Shown piece by piece: positions 55,030 through 64,000 of a stretch of 64,000 bases of DNA. The DNA comes from a bacterium (lineage in GTDB: Bacteria; Bdellovibrionota_C; UBA2361; CALJRW01): NCBI GenBank assembly GCA_031385045.1, contig JANNBC010000052.1, positions 117,359-181,358 on the forward strand, written 5' to 3'. Each line of letters starts with the position of its first letter. Position 1 is the first letter of the stretch. A program made the position numbers and the translations under genes. A model generated the notes under the pieces. It saw nothing but the letters and a program-made list of their open reading frames with translations, was not told the origin of the DNA and did no database searches.

Positions 55030-55198
55030 TGATGCTGTGTTGTCATACCATATGCTTTTTAAAATTCAATCTAAGTAATCCAGACAACTTTAGTTTCTTT
55101 CTTAGCGATTAGTCTTGAGTAGTGATATTAATATAGTTGAGTAGAATTTCAATATTATTAGCTAGTTATATTTTGCATGAGTGGGTGGATAATAGATT

Positions 55199-55243
55199 TC
55201 CATTGACAACAAGTATCCATTTGGTATACTTGCTGTCAATGGA
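55199..55243 (+). promoter_or_regulatory. Sigma70 promoter (TTGACA 55203-55208, 16 bp, TATACT 55225-55230) inside an 18-bp inverted repeat
   Basis: tccattgacaacaagtat...atacttgctgtcaatgga (17/18 match) spans -35, -10 and the ATG at 55239. Confidence 0.8.
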
Positions 55244-55829
55244 GAATAGTGACATTAAAAAAATAAATCATTGGTCAAAAGATTTAAGAGGAGTCTTTAC
55301 TATCAGTGATCTAAAAGTACTTTTCGCAACCGACAGTGAAAAGTCAATTTTTAAAAAGATTGCTGTTATGATTAAAGAAAAAGTTTTAATCAAAGTTAAG
55401 CAAGGCCTCTACGCAATCCCGGAAGCGCAATTGATAGATCTTAGTAAACGAATAAATCCTAGTGCCTATGTTTCGATGGGTAGTATTCTAGCAGAGAAAT
55501 TAATTATTGGTTCGATTCCAGCTAGGAAATTACAAGCAGTCAAGATTGGGAGGCCACGAGTCTTTGTTACAAGTCTTGGCACTATTGAGCATTTAAGTTT
55601 AGCACCAAAACTTTTTTTTGGATTTAATGAATCTGAAGGATTAAAAAAAGCAACGCCAGAAAAGGCATTTTTAGATTGTTGTTATTTTTTCTATAAGGGA
55701 AGGGAACTTTCGTTCGATTTAGATACTGATGTTAATCATAACTTGTTAGATCAAAAAATAATTGCTGAGTACTTAACTAAGTACGATCAACGCTTTATTA
55801 CGTTTTATAAGAAAAAGTGGAGTAAATGA
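55239..55829 (+). CDS. AbiEi-like type IV TA antitoxin / transcriptional regulator (start re-assigned to ATG 55239)
   Basis: wHTH LIKVKQGLY, SAYVS, ATPEKAFLD; overlaps the AbiEii gene start. Confidence 0.82.
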   Translation: MENSDIKKINHWSKDLRGVFTISDLKVLFATDSEKSIFKKIAVMIKEKVLIKVKQGLYAIPEAQLIDLSKRINPSAYVSMGSILAEKLIIGSIPARKLQAVKIGRPRVFVTSLGTIEHLSLAPKLFFGFNESEGLKKATPEKAFLDCCYFFYKGRELSFDLDTDVNHNLLDQKIIAEYLTKYDQRFITFYKKKWSK

Positions 55830-56542
55830 TTAAGCAAGAGCAAGAACTATTAATCAGAGTGATTGATTTATTTGCTCAAAGGTTTAGTCAAAAAGCTATT
55901 TTGCGAGGTGGAATGGTTTTGCGCTTGCTTGGTTGTGAACGTTTAACTAATGATCTTGATTATATTTTTGTTCCCTATCGATCTAAGAATGAAATTGTCT
56001 CTGAAATTATTGCTGTATTAAATGAGATTCAAGATGCTGATATTGAGTATTCTATAAACTCAAAATGTTTACGAATAGTCTTAACGGTTATTGGTGTCTC
56101 TATTCAAATTGAAGTAAAAGTTGCAACAGAGTTATCTTATGAGATACTTTCTACCAAAGCCCTTGCGCAAGAGTATAATTATCCAACAAGGCTCATTCGA
56201 GTAATGGATTATTCTGTAGCATTCGCTCATAAGCTTGCTGCTTGGAATGAGCGGAGGTTGATTCGTGATGTTTATGATATCTGGTTTTTCTTAAAGTTGG
56301 GAGTTGTGCCTGATATTCAAGTACTAGAAAGGAGATTAGAAGAATGTAGCTATTCTAGATTGGTCAAAGATCAGGATAGATTCTTAGGTCAGGGAATCCC
56401 TCAATTCTATGAGTTTTTAATCACTAAAGTCCAAGCCATTTCGCAGGAGCAAGTCAATAATTCTCTAGGTGAATATCTTCCACTTGAGGAGCTGGCTGGA
56501 CTCGCTATGAAATTTAGGGCAGAGTTAGTAAAGTTAAAGTAA
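55826..56542 (+). CDS. AbiEii/AbiGii-family nucleotidyltransferase toxin
   Basis: LRGGMVL...RLTNDLDY, KLAA...RDVYD. Confidence 0.85.
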   Translation: MIKQEQELLIRVIDLFAQRFSQKAILRGGMVLRLLGCERLTNDLDYIFVPYRSKNEIVSEIIAVLNEIQDADIEYSINSKCLRIVLTVIGVSIQIEVKVATELSYEILSTKALAQEYNYPTRLIRVMDYSVAFAHKLAAWNERRLIRDVYDIWFFLKLGVVPDIQVLERRLEECSYSRLVKDQDRFLGQGIPQFYEFLITKVQAISQEQVNNSLGEYLPLEELAGLAMKFRAELVKLK

Positions 56543-56543
56543 G

Positions 56544-57026
56544 ATGAATAAACCAACCGAAAAAAAAGAAAAACCAATTAAAGTAGTCGCCTTAAACAAA
56601 AAGGCTAAGTTCGAGTACCATTTCATCGAAACTTTTGAAGTTGGAATTGTCTTGACTGGGGATGAAATTAAATCTATCCGCGCCAATCAAATTACTTTGA
56701 CCGAAGCTTATGTTCGAGCGATTGAAGGTGAGCTATTCTTAATTGGTGCACACATTGCCCCGTATTCTCATAGTTCAGCTAGAGAGTATAATCCTACTCG
56801 TACTCGAAAGTTATTAATGCAAAAAAAACAAATTATTAAATTACAAGTTCAAGTAAATCAAAAAGGCTTAACAATTGTGCCTTCTCAACTTTACTTAAAG
56901 GGAAGTTTAGCCAAACTAACAATTGCTTTGGCTAAAGGTAAAGATGCTCCTGATAAACGACGAACTGTCCAAGACAGGGAGCTAAAGAAAAAAGCAGAAC
57001 GCGCAGTTAAGATGCAAAGAGGCTAA
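56544..57026 (+). CDS. smpB: SsrA-binding protein
   Basis: NKKAKFEY, GIVLTGDEIKSIR, RTRKLL, AKGK..PDKR. Confidence 0.96.
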   Translation: MNKPTEKKEKPIKVVALNKKAKFEYHFIETFEVGIVLTGDEIKSIRANQITLTEAYVRAIEGELFLIGAHIAPYSHSSAREYNPTRTRKLLMQKKQIIKLQVQVNQKGLTIVPSQLYLKGSLAKLTIALAKGKDAPDKRRTVQDRELKKKAERAVKMQRG

Positions 57027-59373: not shown

Positions 59374-62300
59374 ATGACACCTCTTGCCTCCCAAATTCAA
59401 AGAGAAGATTTAACCACTAAATTGCAAAACTACGATTCTACTCAACCTCTTGGGTGGGATAAAAGTAGACCAAATGAAGTTACCTTATCACTAAAAAATG
59501 GTGAGCAGTTAACAGTTGCATTCCCAATTGGAACTAATTTAAATGAAACGTTTTTAGCTGGAAGATTACCTACTAAATTAGATGAGATCTCCGGTTTAAC
59601 AGCACTAAACACAGTAGAAGGACTAGGTGTCCAGACAAGATCCCTTGCTAATGCAATCAATAATTACTTTGAAAGATATAATGCCAGTGAAGTCCTTCCA
59701 ATTAAAGACAACGAAGTTTCATCAATTGCCAGGTCAAATGTACCAAGTTTAGTTGATGAACTTCTTCAAAATACCGAAAGTCGCTTTGGAGTACGATCGT
59801 TTGTTGCTGAAAGTATTGCTCAGCTTGATTTTAGTGAAGCTCCATCTATTCGTCCTGAAAACGATTCGATTATCCTTTATCTTGTTGATAATGAAAGTGG
59901 AAAGCCTGCTTACTCCACAATTGATATTCTGTTGCCTAGAGGACATACGGTTGATTTACATGAGTTAGCAGAAACTATTTATGAGAATAAAAATCTTCCA
60001 GCCGCTGCTGCAAAATCAACTGAACAAATTGTTGAGAGATTAGAAAAATATTTAGCTAGTCATGGGATTACATTTAAAGATCTAGACTTTGATATCAGGA
60101 TGGATAAGGTTATTCAGCCGACTCCTAAGGCAGTCGAGCCAGTTAAAAAACCTGGATTTTTTGCTAGAAAATTTCAGAGTGCCGTAGATTTAGGGCGTAC
60201 TGCAATTTCCAAGTTGAGTAATGTTTTCACTGCCAAATCAGAAAACGTTGGTGGGCCAATTGATCAGGAAAGTGTTGCTAAACTTCAGCCAGCGAGATTA
60301 GCTTTGGCTAACTCTACCTCAGAAATACCAGCACCAGTATTAGATGTTAAGCCTACTGTTGAAACTAGCTCCTTAGCTACAAGCTTAAAGAAATTAGTTG
60401 CTGTACCAGTTGTTGAAATCAAAATCTTAGTTGATCGTTTAGCTGCTTCAAATTTAAAAGGAACCACGGAATATGCTGTTAATCTTGTTTCTGAAGCGCT
60501 AGGGATTGATCCTACAGAATTAAACCGCAAACATGGCAAAATCAATGTTTCTCCAGAAGTTGCCGAGCTAAGTGAATACAGAAAAGATAATCATATTTCT
60601 AATGGTAATAAACTCCGTGCCAAGTTTGATCAAGTTGTTGGTCAGTTAGTTGATTGGAAATCATTAGAGGCGGTTCGCTTAGAGAATCGTTCTGCCCTTC
60701 CTGTTGCTCAGTCATCTAAAGTAACGAGCCTTAGCAAATCATCAGTCATTGAAGTAGGTGGGGAGATTGTTAGTTCATCACCTACGGGAGGATTGTTGGC
60801 TAAAACTTTACAGTTAATTTCTAAAGTACCTTCAGTTCCAGAAATACTTTATGCCGTTAGCGGAAGAATTTCTGCAGAGCTGGAAGTAATCCAAAAATCA
60901 TTTGCTCGAAAGCCATCATGGGTTGCGGCTGGAATTGCTTTAATGGCATTTGCCTCTGCTGCTACTTCATTGGGAAGTAAAGGAAGCCAATCAGCTTCAG
61001 ATGATCTTCCCGCTCCAGCATTGAGTCAGTCTGGTCTTGGTTTAAATACATCTAATCCAACTGCCCCAACCGTTCAAATGACTCCCAATAATTCAGTAAG
61101 TAATTCTTTATCAGACTTAATCAGCATTAATACGGAACTTGCGATACCAGCGACAAGATCTTTAGGACTAGATGTTGCAGAAAAATTTGCAGAAGTAGCC
61201 GAAGCATTTAACTCGCGTCCTGTTGTTGATTCTAAGCCTGTTGTAGCTCCAGCTCCGCTAATAGAAGAGGCCAACCTTGTTGCTCAAAAATTCCAACAGA
61301 TTGCTGATGAGATTAATGCTAAACCTCCAGTTGCGATTCCAGTAGTTGCACCGATTGTTGAGAAAGTTGCTATGCCACTTAAAGATGTTATTAAGCTCGC
61401 TTACTATGCAGGAGTTGGTAATAACAATAAAGCTAATGGCAAGAAAGAATTTGAAAAAGCTAGTAACTTTTTAGTTGGTCAATTTGGAAATGATTTTGAT
61501 TTAAGTAAATTAATTAGTGAAGTAAAAAAAGATCCTTCAGCTACCAAACAACTTGACCCAGAATGGAAGACTTTCTTAGCTGGTGTTCGTAGTGCTGCTC
61601 CAAAAAAATCAGGGGAGAATTTAGCTCAAGCAAAACTTATTCAAGAGCAAATTGCAGCACGACTAGCAGTAGAACCTACTTCTCCGGAAAAATTTGAACC
61701 AAAAATAGCCAAATCTCCTGAAGCCACTCCAGCCTTAGAAGAAAAAACTCTTAAGACCTCTGAGCCTAAAGCTCAAGCTCAAACTAATCAGAACGAACAA
61801 GCTACAAGTAAGTCTTTAGATAGTCTACCTGATGCTACAGTAGAATTAGAGCAAGTCACTCCTAAGGATCTAGGTTTATTGTTGCGCAGAATTGCTGGCT
61901 GTAATCATAAAAATGCTGATCAAGAGCCAAGCTATTTAGTTGCCAGTCGTATCGGGATCTCTACGGAAGAGCTTGATTGGTTAAACAATTCGAAAGATGT
62001 TTTAGTAGAAGTTAGTTCGGGAATTTCCTCTTTAATTAAAGAGATGAATAATGGCACTATCAATACCAAAGAACTTCGCCGTTTATTTGACAACCTTGAT
62101 TCTCAAAAAGATGAAAAGCAAGTTAACTGGGCAGAGGTTGATCGCATTGCCAAGCAAAAGCTAGCTGACTCTTCCAGGGCTTCAAAACATCTTAGCTCTA
62201 ATTCTAGAGGTCATGCTACGGAGCAAGTTGAGACTAAGTTTCAATATCAAATGAACCGTAGTGCTGGCTTATTACGACCAACGGCAAGAACGATTGTGAT

Positions 62301-62466
62301 GAGTGAAAATGGTGCCCCAGTTGCTGCTTATACCGAAAGTGGCATTTTAAAAAGACAGGGGACTTATCTTTTTCAAGGAGGTGTTACTAACCCAAGATAT
62401 AAGACTATCTTGAATGAGAAATTTAAGAAATATTCTGGTAAAACTCCTGTAGACGAAGAGCTGTAG
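59374..62466 (+). CDS. Large hypothetical protein (1030 aa) with one central hydrophobic segment
   Basis: Long ORF, low-complexity Ser/Pro/Ala regions, WVAAGIALMAFASAA. Confidence 0.75.
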   Translation: MTPLASQIQREDLTTKLQNYDSTQPLGWDKSRPNEVTLSLKNGEQLTVAFPIGTNLNETFLAGRLPTKLDEISGLTALNTVEGLGVQTRSLANAINNYFERYNASEVLPIKDNEVSSIARSNVPSLVDELLQNTESRFGVRSFVAESIAQLDFSEAPSIRPENDSIILYLVDNESGKPAYSTIDILLPRGHTVDLHELAETIYENKNLPAAAAKSTEQIVERLEKYLASHGITFKDLDFDIRMDKVIQPTPKAVEPVKKPGFFARKFQSAVDLGRTAISKLSNVFTAKSENVGGPIDQESVAKLQPARLALANSTSEIPAPVLDVKPTVETSSLATSLKKLVAVPVVEIKILVDRLAASNLKGTTEYAVNLVSEALGIDPTELNRKHGKINVSPEVAELSEYRKDNHISNGNKLRAKFDQVVGQLVDWKSLEAVRLENRSALPVAQSSKVTSLSKSSVIEVGGEIVSSSPTGGLLAKTLQLISKVPSVPEILYAVSGRISAELEVIQKSFARKPSWVAAGIALMAFASAATSLGSKGSQSASDDLPAPALSQSGLGLNTSNPTAPTVQMTPNNSVSNSLSDLISINTELAIPATRSLGLDVAEKFAEVAEAFNSRPVVDSKPVVAPAPLIEEANLVAQKFQQIADEINAKPPVAIPVVAPIVEKVAMPLKDVIKLAYYAGVGNNNKANGKKEFEKASNFLVGQFGNDFDLSKLISEVKKDPSATKQLDPEWKTFLAGVRSAAPKKSGENLAQAKLIQEQIAARLAVEPTSPEKFEPKIAKSPEATPALEEKTLKTSEPKAQAQTNQNEQATSKSLDSLPDATVELEQVTPKDLGLLLRRIAGCNHKNADQEPSYLVASRIGISTEELDWLNNSKDVLVEVSSGISSLIKEMNNGTINTKELRRLFDNLDSQKDEKQVNWAEVDRIAKQKLADSSRASKHLSSNSRGHATEQVETKFQYQMNRSAGLLRPTARTIVMSENGAPVAAYTESGILKRQGTYLFQGGVTNPRYKTILNEKFKKYSGKTPVDEEL

Positions 62467-62482
62467 TCTTTGAAACTTGTAG

Positions 62483-62515
62483 GCTAGGATTAAATTCTAA
62501 CAATTTAATCCTAGC
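62483..62515. terminator. 14-bp hairpin after the large ORF
   Basis: gctaggattaaatt-ctaac-aatttaatcctagc. Confidence 0.45.
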
Positions 62516-62799
62516 AAATTACCTTTGATTCAAATCTCCCGATTTTATTTATAAGGCCTTAAACTAACTCTGGCCGAAGTATTTCAACTTAATATCCAGT
62601 ATCTTCTTTAAAATCCCCCTTAAAACAGCATTATTTTGCATATTTTGCCGAATAATTTATTTATAATTATTTTCCTTTTTTTATAAAAAAAGGAGCACAT
62701 TTTTTTGCTTAGCTCCATAACTTGTATATACTTTGTCGGGATTCAAGAAAATGAATCCTTTTATAGAAAAAGATTTTATATATTTAATAGGTAGTAAAA

Positions 62800-63291
62800 A
62801 TGAATGCATTTACATCGAAAATAGCAGCGATATCACTAGCAGCAGCAACTCTTCCAAGTTGCACAAACTTAGGCACGGTTGCTCCAAGTTTGAAAGACCC
62901 TGCTAAAAGATCAACACCAGTTAGCCTTTTAACTTCAGAAACATCTGTTGAAGTTGTTGAAGGATCAAGAACTGAGATTTGTGCTGATGGTACAAGATGT
63001 TCAACTAGCAAAAGAGCAGTTGCATATGAAGAAACAAGAGCATCAGTTAGAAACCCTTCTTTGTTAGAAGCAGTAGTTTCTCCAGCATTACAAGGTGCTG
63101 TTGGTGCAGCTTTAATTCGACCGTCTAGAACTAATGTTTCACAGAAGGTTAGTAATAATACTAATGTAAATCAAAGCCAAAACCAGGGACAACATCAAGG
63201 TCAAACTGGTGGAACAGTAATTGTGCAACCACCACATTGCCCTCCAACTACTCCAGACTCTGGTACTGGACAACCTCCACGTGACCACTAA
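62800..63291 (+). CDS. Hypothetical lipoprotein
   Basis: Signal peptide with LPSC lipobox-like site; Gln/Asn/Pro-rich tail. Confidence 0.65.
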   Translation: MNAFTSKIAAISLAAATLPSCTNLGTVAPSLKDPAKRSTPVSLLTSETSVEVVEGSRTEICADGTRCSTSKRAVAYEETRASVRNPSLLEAVVSPALQGAVGAALIRPSRTNVSQKVSNNTNVNQSQNQGQHQGQTGGTVIVQPPHCPPTTPDSGTGQPPRDH

Positions 63292-63311
63292 TCAATAGAT
63301 TAGCTGAGTTG

Positions 63312-63349
63312 AAGCCCTGTATATCTGCAAAGGTATACAGGGCTTTTTT
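63312..63349 (+). terminator. Rho-independent terminator
   Basis: aagccctgtatatct-gcaa-aggtatacagggctt followed by a T-run. Confidence 0.85.
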
Positions 63350-63354
63350 ATTTG

Positions 63355-63363
63355 TGCTATACT
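63355..63363 (+). promoter_or_regulatory. Extended -10 element (TGcTATACT) upstream of the ncRNA array
   Basis: TGnTATAAT-like match just after a terminator and about 50 nt before unit 1. Confidence 0.5.
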
Positions 63364-63412
63364 AATTAATCAATGAATAAAAAACTTAAATCATTCATCT
63401 AAGTTTATTATT

Positions 63413-64000
63413 GGGGGTGTCCATTCTGCGTCGCTAAAGCTATGCAGAATGAAGGTTTCGACTGGATTCAGAGATTAAGCCTGCCTCGAGTTTAAAGTGG
63501 CGATAAATTTAATTGTCAGTCTTCGACTGCCAATTAAATTTAAATCCAACTAGTGCTAATTAAGATTTTAGCTTTGCAAAGATTGCGCCGGCTGGCTCAG
63601 TCTTCAAATCGTTAAGATTTAGAATGTGCTAGCAATATTTAAGTTATTAACATCGGGGGTGTCCAGGTTTCGACTGGATTTGAAGACTTTAATCATGCCT
63701 CGAGCATAAAGTGGTGATAAATTTAGTAGTAAGTCCATGACTTCCTACTAAATTTAAACCCAACCTAGTTCTAATCACGATTTTTACTGTGCTGACATCG
63801 ATCGGGCAGGATAAAATCTCTGAATCGTTAAGATTCTGATTCTTACTAGCAAAGTTTAAGTTATTAACATCGGGGGTGTCCAGGTTTCGACTGGATTCAG
63901 AGATTAAGCCTGCCTCGAGTTTAAAGTGGCGATAAATTTAATTGTCAGTCTTCGACTGCCAATTAAATTTAAATCCAACTAGTGCTAATTAAGATTTTAG
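63413..64000 (+). ncRNA. Tandem array of ~217-nt structured RNA units with tmRNA-like 5' ends (A 63413, B 63655, A 63872; truncated by the window)
   Basis: Each unit starts GGGGGTGTCCA..GGTTTCGACTGGATT...TGCCTCGAG. Units share a covarying 39-nt hairpin, and the two junctions share an identical 43 nt. No long ORF. Confidence 0.75.

Follow-up and report, generated by a model that had tools for sequence, protein, structure and literature searches.

Small modules carrying direct and inverted copies of the tmRNA 5' end in a tandem array of a Bdellovibrionota_C genome

Introduction

The end of a 64,000-nt stretch of DNA from a bacterium of the Bdellovibrionota_C (contig JANNBC010000052.1 of assembly GCA_031385045.1; the whole stretch is called the window here) raises the question of how repeated sequences come to fit their neighbours. 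Units of two types, A and B, follow one another in tandem, and the 3' arm of each unit pairs perfectly with the 5' arm of the next. What are these units, where do their arms come from, and does the fit reflect pairing in RNA or an event in DNA? The initial annotation took the arrangement for either an RNA permuted across the junction between units, as in two-piece tmRNA genes, or an obligate strand-swapped dimer or chain of A and B RNAs. We compared the window with the rest of its source genome (G000), with a genome of the same genus (G001) and with more distant relatives. Coordinates without a prefix refer to the window, and to its plus strand unless stated.

Results

Each unit ends in an inverted copy of the next head

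The units share one plan of about 210 nt: a direct copy of the tmRNA 5' end (the head), a hairpin core, nt 23-35 of the next 5' end in inverted orientation (the arm), and a 44-nt spacer. Their order is A0 (63413-63654), B (63655-63871) and a cut-off unit A' (63872-64000), and the window ends where the contig ends. The features are as follows.

63413-63468, plus strand: A0 head, a copy of tmRNA nt 1-26 broken after nt 10/11 (compared with the tmRNA at G000:C33:5755-6110)
63423-63452, minus strand: 30-nt hairpin within the A0 head, a member of a REP-like repeat family of G000
63465-63476, plus strand: A-type 5' arm, at the position of tmRNA nt 23-34; complement of the B 3' arm
63477-63598, plus strand: A core, with an inner helix (63478-63485/63590-63597) and an 18-bp hairpin (63504-63542) that holds a conserved T.C mismatch
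63599-63610, plus strand: A 3' arm, exactly the reverse complement of nt 23-34 in both the B head and the tmRNA
63611-63654, plus strand: A spacer, 44 nt, with no T arm, acceptor strand or CCA; its last 6 nt equal the tmRNA leader on C33
63655-63690, plus strand: B head, equal to tmRNA nt 1-36
63691-63814, plus strand: B core, a paralogue of the A core; hairpin 63718-63756 has three compensatory pairs relative to A
63815-63826, plus strand: B 3' arm, exactly the reverse complement of the A-type 5' arm
63827-63871, plus strand: B spacer, 45 nt
63872-64000, plus strand: A', cut by the contig end; its last 119 nt equal A0, and independent contigs do not support it

The complementarity described in the initial annotation is exact. 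The A 3' arm at 63599-63610 is the reverse complement of the B 5' arm at 63677-63688, and the B 3' arm at 63815-63826 is the reverse complement of both 63465-63476 and 63894-63905. The accompanying counts are also correct: pairing inside either unit gives 8 Watson-Crick pairs, 2 G-U pairs and 2 mismatches, the paired arms enclose 66 and 67 nt, and the A-type and B head arms differ at 4 of 12 positions. The claimed alternation of types depends on the third unit, which lies at the contig end, and the B-to-A' join is absent from the 31-mer contigs of run X1. Runs X2 to X4 do not cover the units.

At least one inverted 12-mer match arose in 421 of 3000 shuffles of the whole array. In a four-row alignment of the junctions, one row of which is a no-element control, 5 of the 12 pairs are changed on both sides and 85% of the cells are paired. 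The covariation score of this alignment was reached in 4 of 500 shuffles, which is no probability because the rows are related. A decayed extension of the A 3' arm carries the complementarity on to about tmRNA nt 9-12.

As whole units, A and B are 76% identical. In the core hairpin the T.C mismatch is kept between them while three pairs change on both sides. A conserved CTAG of the core may also pair with a conserved CTAG of the spacer in all three units (63549-63556/63625-63632 in A0); this helix would cross the inner helix and thus form a pseudoknot, with very few sequences behind it. As for the hairpin that interrupts the A0 head, the 11-nt core of its family occurs 23 times in G000 against 1.2 expected, and some copies adjoin tRNA genes and the RNase P RNA gene.

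We considered that the core might be a shrunken tmRNA body and rejected this, since 442, 763 and 942 of 1000 shuffles gave an equally good likeness. For the spacer as a decayed copy of the promoter or leader there is a weak hint: one of six comparisons reached 20 of 1000 shuffles and the other five did not. At the gathering score, an Rfam scan of the window returned one tRNA only, with no known ribozyme or other RNA family, and the ten weak matches within 62400-64000 all fell under the cut-off. The heads matched the Rfam tmRNA models below threshold (15.9 and 11.5 bits, cut-off 47), and ARAGORN called no tmRNA in the window.

The heads derive from the tmRNA gene

A standard, intact tmRNA gene is present elsewhere in G000, at 5755-6110 of contig C33, with the tag ANEDNYQLALAA. 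The 36 nt of the B head together with the 6 nt before it are identical to the 5' end of this gene, and the A heads share nt 1-26. Because the B head equals tmRNA nt 1-36, the A 3' arm is antisense to nt 23-34 of the tmRNA itself.

Several lines of evidence suggest that the array lies at the native gene (ssrA). The first stretch of contig C33 is the 3'-terminal 104 nt of a second tmRNA copy. In run X1 the common 42-nt piece continues into either B or the full tmRNA, and the depth over the tmRNA is 26, compared with 12.7 over unique DNA. The gene for the tmRNA partner protein lies nearby, and its proximity and synteny support a native tmRNA locus:

56544-57026, plus strand: smpB (PF01668, E 8e-51), 6.4 kb upstream of the array and syntenic in G001

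Taken together, the tmRNA-type heads, the second tmRNA piece, the nearby smpB and the branching and depth in run X1 lead us to infer that the native tmRNA gene has this array as its 5' flank, with the repeats causing the break in the assembly. The link from the array contig to the tmRNA thus spans a contig break and is deduced, not assembled.

A two-gene pair with an AbiEii-type nucleotidyltransferase (55137-56542) lies directly upstream of smpB. ORFs of 1030 aa (59374-62466) and 163 aa (62800-63291) have no Pfam match, and both have homologues at the same place in G001. To judge from C33 (1-6110), the genome seems to have two copies of the tmRNA gene, one next to the native 5' flank and the other next to the native 3' flank, on either side of a 5.6-kb island that carries an AbiEii-type gene and a kinase; the repeat around this island is the whole tmRNA gene plus 6 leader nt. 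A long hairpin is inserted at the tmRNA 3' end (G000:C33:105-390), followed by an interrupted small GIY-YIG gene on the minus strand. The other copy is followed (G000:C33:6111-6320) by a tandem pair of units, roughly 104 nt in length; both contain the T arm in inverted form and the 3' end as a direct copy.

The third unit is probably real

A' probably exists as a real unit. The less probable case, still to be taken seriously, is that A' is an assembly artefact or a rare variant and that the true order is A0-B-tmRNA. The A0 head:B arm and A arm:B head pairings would then form one nested four-way domain. In run X1 the whole of A0 lies in a single contig with no branch, and the common 42-nt piece likewise has no branch where A' should diverge; the A0 head:B arm pairing is also predicted with a probability of 0.96-0.98 in three of the four lengths that hold both. 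However, contigs built from 31-mers drop short links, and in G001 it is A, not B, that directly precedes the tmRNA. Furthermore, the contig end shares exactly 119 nt with A0, while most contig ends overlap by 141 nt and some by 79 or 99 nt. We take these values to be MEGAHIT word sizes; because the 119-nt overlap fits such a size, the A' join is probably a real edge of the assembly graph. The shorter order would be compatible with the explanation we prefer below.

The arm follows its neighbour in a second genome

At the corresponding locus of G001 the upstream gene, terminator and promoter motif are shared with G000; a single A-like unit comes next, and directly after it an intact tmRNA gene. 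There the arm pairs over 13 nt with tmRNA nt 23-35. The tmRNAs of G000 and G001 differ at 15 of 356 positions, 4 of which fall at nt 27-31, and the G001 arm matches all four of these changes. The neighbour-specific complementarity is kept in G001: the G001 arm represents a third state, with 11 Watson-Crick pairs and one G-U pair out of 12 with the tmRNA head that follows. Overall, the three arms form 12, 12 and 11 plus one G-U of 12 pairs with the following head, compared with 8 plus 2, 8 plus 2 and 9 plus 1 with their own, and each fits the following head better than any other head. At the 3' end of the G001 tmRNA, an arm did not track a change in the T loop.

The unit is also well conserved as a whole. 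It is 83% identical between G000 and G001, compared with 23 of 51 identical fourfold-degenerate sites in smpB and 66-80% identity in neighbouring coding DNA, so the unit is either under selection or recently moved. The loop of the orthologous core hairpin differs by a 1-nt indel. A covariance model of the A/B unit, run over 124 genomes of the class, found the core in G000 and G001 only, and the core structure therefore rests on three sequences. A metagenome scan with a 19-nt core motif gave 31 matches, none with a tmRNA context. At one further locus (L163) an A-type unit precedes a tmRNA bearing the same tag, which we do not count as independent.

The same build recurs at other tmRNA and tRNA genes

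From a search of the order for tmRNA genes we took 70 loci, 67 with a placeable 5' end (five placed by hand) and 66 with at least 150 nt upstream. A direct upstream copy of at least 12 nt of the 5' end occurs at 12 of the 66 loci, in seven families, and an exact inverted copy of at least 10 nt at 4 of the 66, in three families; the control segment gave 0 in both cases. All four inverted-copy loci are among the twelve with a direct copy, and kin among them are not independent. The direct-plus-inverted build at tmRNA 5' ends is thus present in two other families of the order. Because 8 of the 12 direct-copy loci have no exact inverted arm, the 5' units are not one family. Upstream copies are absent from the remaining 54 relatives, which are too distant to serve as empty alleles. 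On the 3' side, with a rough end-finding pattern, there was no enrichment over the order (2 of 56 loci direct and 1 of 56 inverted, controls 1 and 0).

The cores differ from locus to locus, and the number of units varies, with tandem arrays of two to four units in relatives and four 108-nt units at one locus. At L115 (G037:C26), L089 and L097, two to four units of 108-127 nt lie between the promoter and the tmRNA, and their cargo resembles the tmRNA 3'-end hairpins of other members of the order. In two relatives (L041 and L115) ARAGORN took an upstream spare head for the gene start. Short-unit head arrays also occur in Clostridia, an Oscillospiraceae genome and Treponema. A genome-wide pattern with a head spacing of 200-230 nt gave ten matches: one A-type unit, five chance or unrelated repeats, and four short-unit head arrays in other phyla with no clear antisense arm.

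The build is not confined to tmRNA genes. Upstream of the tRNA-Asp gene of G000 lie a copy of its nt 1-35, a hairpin and, about 58 nt before the gene, a decayed inverted copy. This gene (G000:C54:110120-110195; L121) has end-copying elements on both flanks, conserved in G001. A mirror build at the 3' end is found at 4 of 34 tRNA genes of G000 and at the tmRNA gene, each arm being specific to its own gene. The same build is found at several of the 31 tRNA genes examined in G001, among 30 of 37 matches listed. The RNase P RNA genes, by comparison, have no end copies of at least 11 nt in the four cases checked. One G001 locus (L137, G001:C63) carries tRNA-Ser(TGA) as two full tandem copies.

In 15 of 15 placeable cases, all selected for showing both copies (eight at 5' ends, seven at 3' ends), the inverted copy overlaps or abuts the edge of the direct copy. 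Because the build recurs at other tmRNA 5' ends and mirrored at tRNA ends, the arm, the spacer and the next head appear to be inherited as one module.

Predicted transcription and folding

Two signals precede the array:

63311-63346, plus strand: terminator-like hairpin of the upstream orphan ORF (62800-63291), 16 pairs with a T tail; a similar one in the corresponding position of G001
63334-63363, plus strand: promoter-like site with an extended -10 (9 of 12 positions matched, TG present); the same motif in G001

The promoter-like site probably serves the whole array and the tmRNA behind it. Within the array, no terminator-like site was found between units. One promoter-like site and the lack of internal terminator-like sites suggest that the array is a long pre-tmRNA leader. 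The tmRNA 5' end is made by RNase P (excerpts of PMC3985003), and an RNase P RNA was found in 5 of 5 genomes tested.

As isolated units, A and B are predicted to bind each other best: predicted binding is -18.2 kcal/mol for A:B, -14.6 for A:A and -9.1 for B:B, and the cofold pairs the A head with the B arm. These values mean that the A/B pairing is not obligate. In the whole array, folded by partition function with no pseudoknots, A arm:B head has a probability of at most 0.05; the within-unit inner helices were not predicted either. The A0 head:B arm pairing, high at three lengths, drops to 0.34 at the fourth, where the B arm pairs with the A' head at 0.55. In the G001 precursor, folded likewise, the arm pairs with its own head (0.91-0.98) and hardly with the tmRNA head (at most 0.01). 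The arms are thus predicted to pair with upstream heads, leaving the tmRNA 5' end free.

These predictions bear on a host-selected leader RNA, which we consider unlikely. The arm would pair with the 5' strand of the nascent tmRNA, in the D-loop region and P2, to guide its folding or to act as a switch that times maturation, and B and A0 would be amplified spare copies. In agreement with this, the G001 arm makes 13 pairs with the tmRNA compared with 9 contiguous pairs with its own head, and the unit is conserved above the neutral level, with invariant unpaired stretches and a kept mismatch. At eight 5' arms, departures from pairing appear on the sense strand 20 times as G-U and 10 times as A-C, a weak sense bias from hand-chosen rows. 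By contrast, the mirror 3' arms, also hand-chosen, gave 13 and 15 with no strand bias, and folding z-scores are alike on both strands. (Rows reaching their complementarity in more than 3 of 300 shuffles were dropped from these counts, 4 of 12 at 5' ends and 2 of 12 at 3' ends; a tRNA-Ser row probably matches a direct copy.) Moreover, the pairings this RNA would need have the low probabilities given above, and 54 of 66 relatives manage with no upstream copy. Judged by its history in sequence, each arm belongs with the next head, but judged by predicted folding it belongs with an upstream head. Mainly on account of this contrast, which itself depends on prediction, we prefer copying at the DNA level.

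Discussion

Origin and maintenance of the modules

Partial copies of tRNA and tmRNA genes are usually taken as scars of island entry at the 3' end. In this array, modules without genes accumulate at the 5' end, with an inverted copy fitted to their own target, and they are conserved well above the neutral level. We consider it fairly probable that the 5' flank of ssrA has been filled with small non-coding modules that copy the gene end, arise at the DNA level, are inherited as blocks and are transcribed as a leader.

Such an array could have formed as follows. A DNA-level event at the gene 5' end, by template-switch synthesis or by insertion with a trans-acting enzyme, would write both copies from the target, and the inverted copy would hence span the point where the direct copy stops. 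The arm, the spacer and the next head would form one block, in which selection, or renewed copying from one arm to the other, would preserve the complementarity. From a state like that of G001, duplication of the unit would give B-A-tmRNA with each arm following its downstream neighbour, so that the B arm came to track the A head and the A arm the tmRNA head. The duplication would be old, because A and B are only 76% identical. An unequal crossover between heads would then have given B its tmRNA-type head and added the recent copy A0, producing A-B-A. The first head, with no arm upstream, would have acquired the REP-like hairpin. The array would probably be transcribed as a pre-tmRNA leader and removed by RNase P; in that RNA the arms would pair with the spare heads upstream while the true 5' end stayed free.

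That the modules were made by copying or insertion of DNA and then kept by selection is thus the most likely reading. Conservation above the neutral level speaks against the units being simple scars, and the DNA-copying model does not account for selection on the core. Profile searches gave no integrase or GIY-YIG match inside the 5' array, and no empty site or circle was seen.

A bolder proposal, to which we give a small chance, is that an undescribed insertion system, templated by its target, left the modules behind as footprints. A trans-acting enzyme would open tRNA or tmRNA genes near either end, and the inverted arm, built from the target, would span the insertion point and guide later events. 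If so, a module may overwrite the essential 5' segment of the tmRNA, which would explain the four changes at nt 27-31, and B would be a module that used the head of another module as its target.

Recombination sites and permuted RNAs

In integron attC cassette arrays, each junction is a self-complementary site with the ends RYYYAAC/GTTRRRY and a bottom-strand bias. By analogy, the junction hairpins here could be recombination sites in single-stranded DNA, at which a recombinase or nuclease supplied in trans adds or removes core cassettes, and the folded arm, spacer and head could also replace the 5' segment of the tmRNA. Every junction is indeed self-complementary, and exactly so, relatives have tandem arrays of two to four units, and the clustered tmRNA changes lie beneath the arm. 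Nevertheless, we find this improbable. The arms are copies of a host RNA gene, no integrase adjoins the array and no integron integrase was identified, the four PF00589 matches in G000 all lying off contigs C2 and C33. The GTT/AAC-like ends of the G000 spacers are not preserved in G001, the strand bias is a weak sense bias at 5' arms, and no excised form was seen. A GIY-YIG remnant stands behind the tmRNA 3' piece on C33, and in G001 tRNA-Ala is followed by a small, intact GIY-YIG gene. This association is one of position, at 3' ends only, and the main text of the paper on the Ssn GIY-YIG enzymes does not mention tRNA or tmRNA genes (PMC11893778); we regard these genes as a lead only.

We dismiss as very improbable the two readings of the initial annotation, a permuted tmRNA-like RNA across the junction and an obligate strand-swapped A/B dimer: their helix order is that of permuted tmRNA genes and A:B is the strongest of the three predicted pairings, but a T arm, acceptor 3' strand and CCA are absent from 3 of 3 junctions, there is no conserved tag frame, the heads match Rfam tmRNA below threshold only, and A:B is only 3.6 kcal/mol better than A:A. 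What survives of the permuted unit is that the heads are tmRNA-derived and that a co-varying module spans the junction; the two-piece tmRNA itself falls, an intact standard tmRNA being present. Several findings speak against an obligate heterodimer or chain: G001 has one unit and no B, the A arm also has the tmRNA 5' strand as a partner, and a single probable promoter precedes all units with no terminator-like site between them.

Consequences

Since the locus holds three natural arm/head variants of one module, re-copying of DNA and selected RNA pairing can be distinguished by direct test. If modules rewrite the 5' strand of the tmRNA, they would offer a route of change in an essential RNA. 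The modules are moreover a source of error in assembly and annotation, as shown by the break of the contig at this point and by the gene start that ARAGORN misplaced in the two relatives named above.

Comparison with known systems

In the literature searched, in part by titles and the openings of abstracts, we found no description of direct-plus-inverted end copies at bacterial tmRNA 5' ends. Word searches in excerpts of a 2025 tmRNA survey (PMC11915505), which distinguishes three gene forms, found no upstream or tandem copies, and excerpts of PMC4131195 and PMC9897764 mention fragments as products of islands only.

In permuted two-piece tmRNA (excerpts of PMC11915505 and PMC3985003), as here, a strand complementary to the 5' strand of P2 precedes the GGGG 5' end. 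The present units differ in having no T arm, acceptor 3' strand, CCA or tag frame, and a standard tmRNA is present. A viral permuted tmRNA gene used as a control (L166) has the T arm, acceptor strand and CCA. In front of its acceptor piece stands a further, decayed copy of the tmRNA 5' end, which is what a permutation through tandem duplication would be expected to leave.

Template switching creates perfect stems and clustered compensations (excerpts of PMC8794818), much like the perfect stems and clusters of parallel compensatory changes at tmRNA nt 27-31. The cases described there are local stem-loops enriched for 4-nt loops, whereas here 66-67 nt separate the arms, which are accompanied by a direct repeat and a core.

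The G000 genome also resembles those with REP/BIME-like repeats or with Ssn GIY-YIG enzymes and their SRM hairpins (PMC11893778, main text) in having short hairpin repeats and small GIY-YIG genes. Unlike these dispersed repeats, the A/B core occurs at a single locus, and on tRNA and tmRNA genes that main text is silent.

In their accretion at ssrA the modules resemble the ssrA islands and the integrase-less, cis-mobilizable elements of Dehalococcoides (excerpts of PMC3146451). Those elements likewise accrete in tandem at the tmRNA gene and are bounded by a direct repeat of the gene end, and some have no integration module. They lie downstream, however, carry genes and have a 20-bp repeat of the 3' end, whereas the present modules lie upstream, repeat the 5' end, measure about 210 nt, hold no genes and add an inverted copy of the target. 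As in an island, an intact gene stands at one end and a partial direct repeat at the other, seen in G001 and deduced across the contig break in G000. Islands repeat the 3' end, with the element downstream, and have an integrase of their own or beside them; here the repeat is the 5' end with the element upstream, and the four PF00589 matches in G000, off C2 and C33, supply no such integrase. We describe the array as a variant, at the 5' end, of elements linked to tRNA and tmRNA genes, and its covariation is unusually clean.
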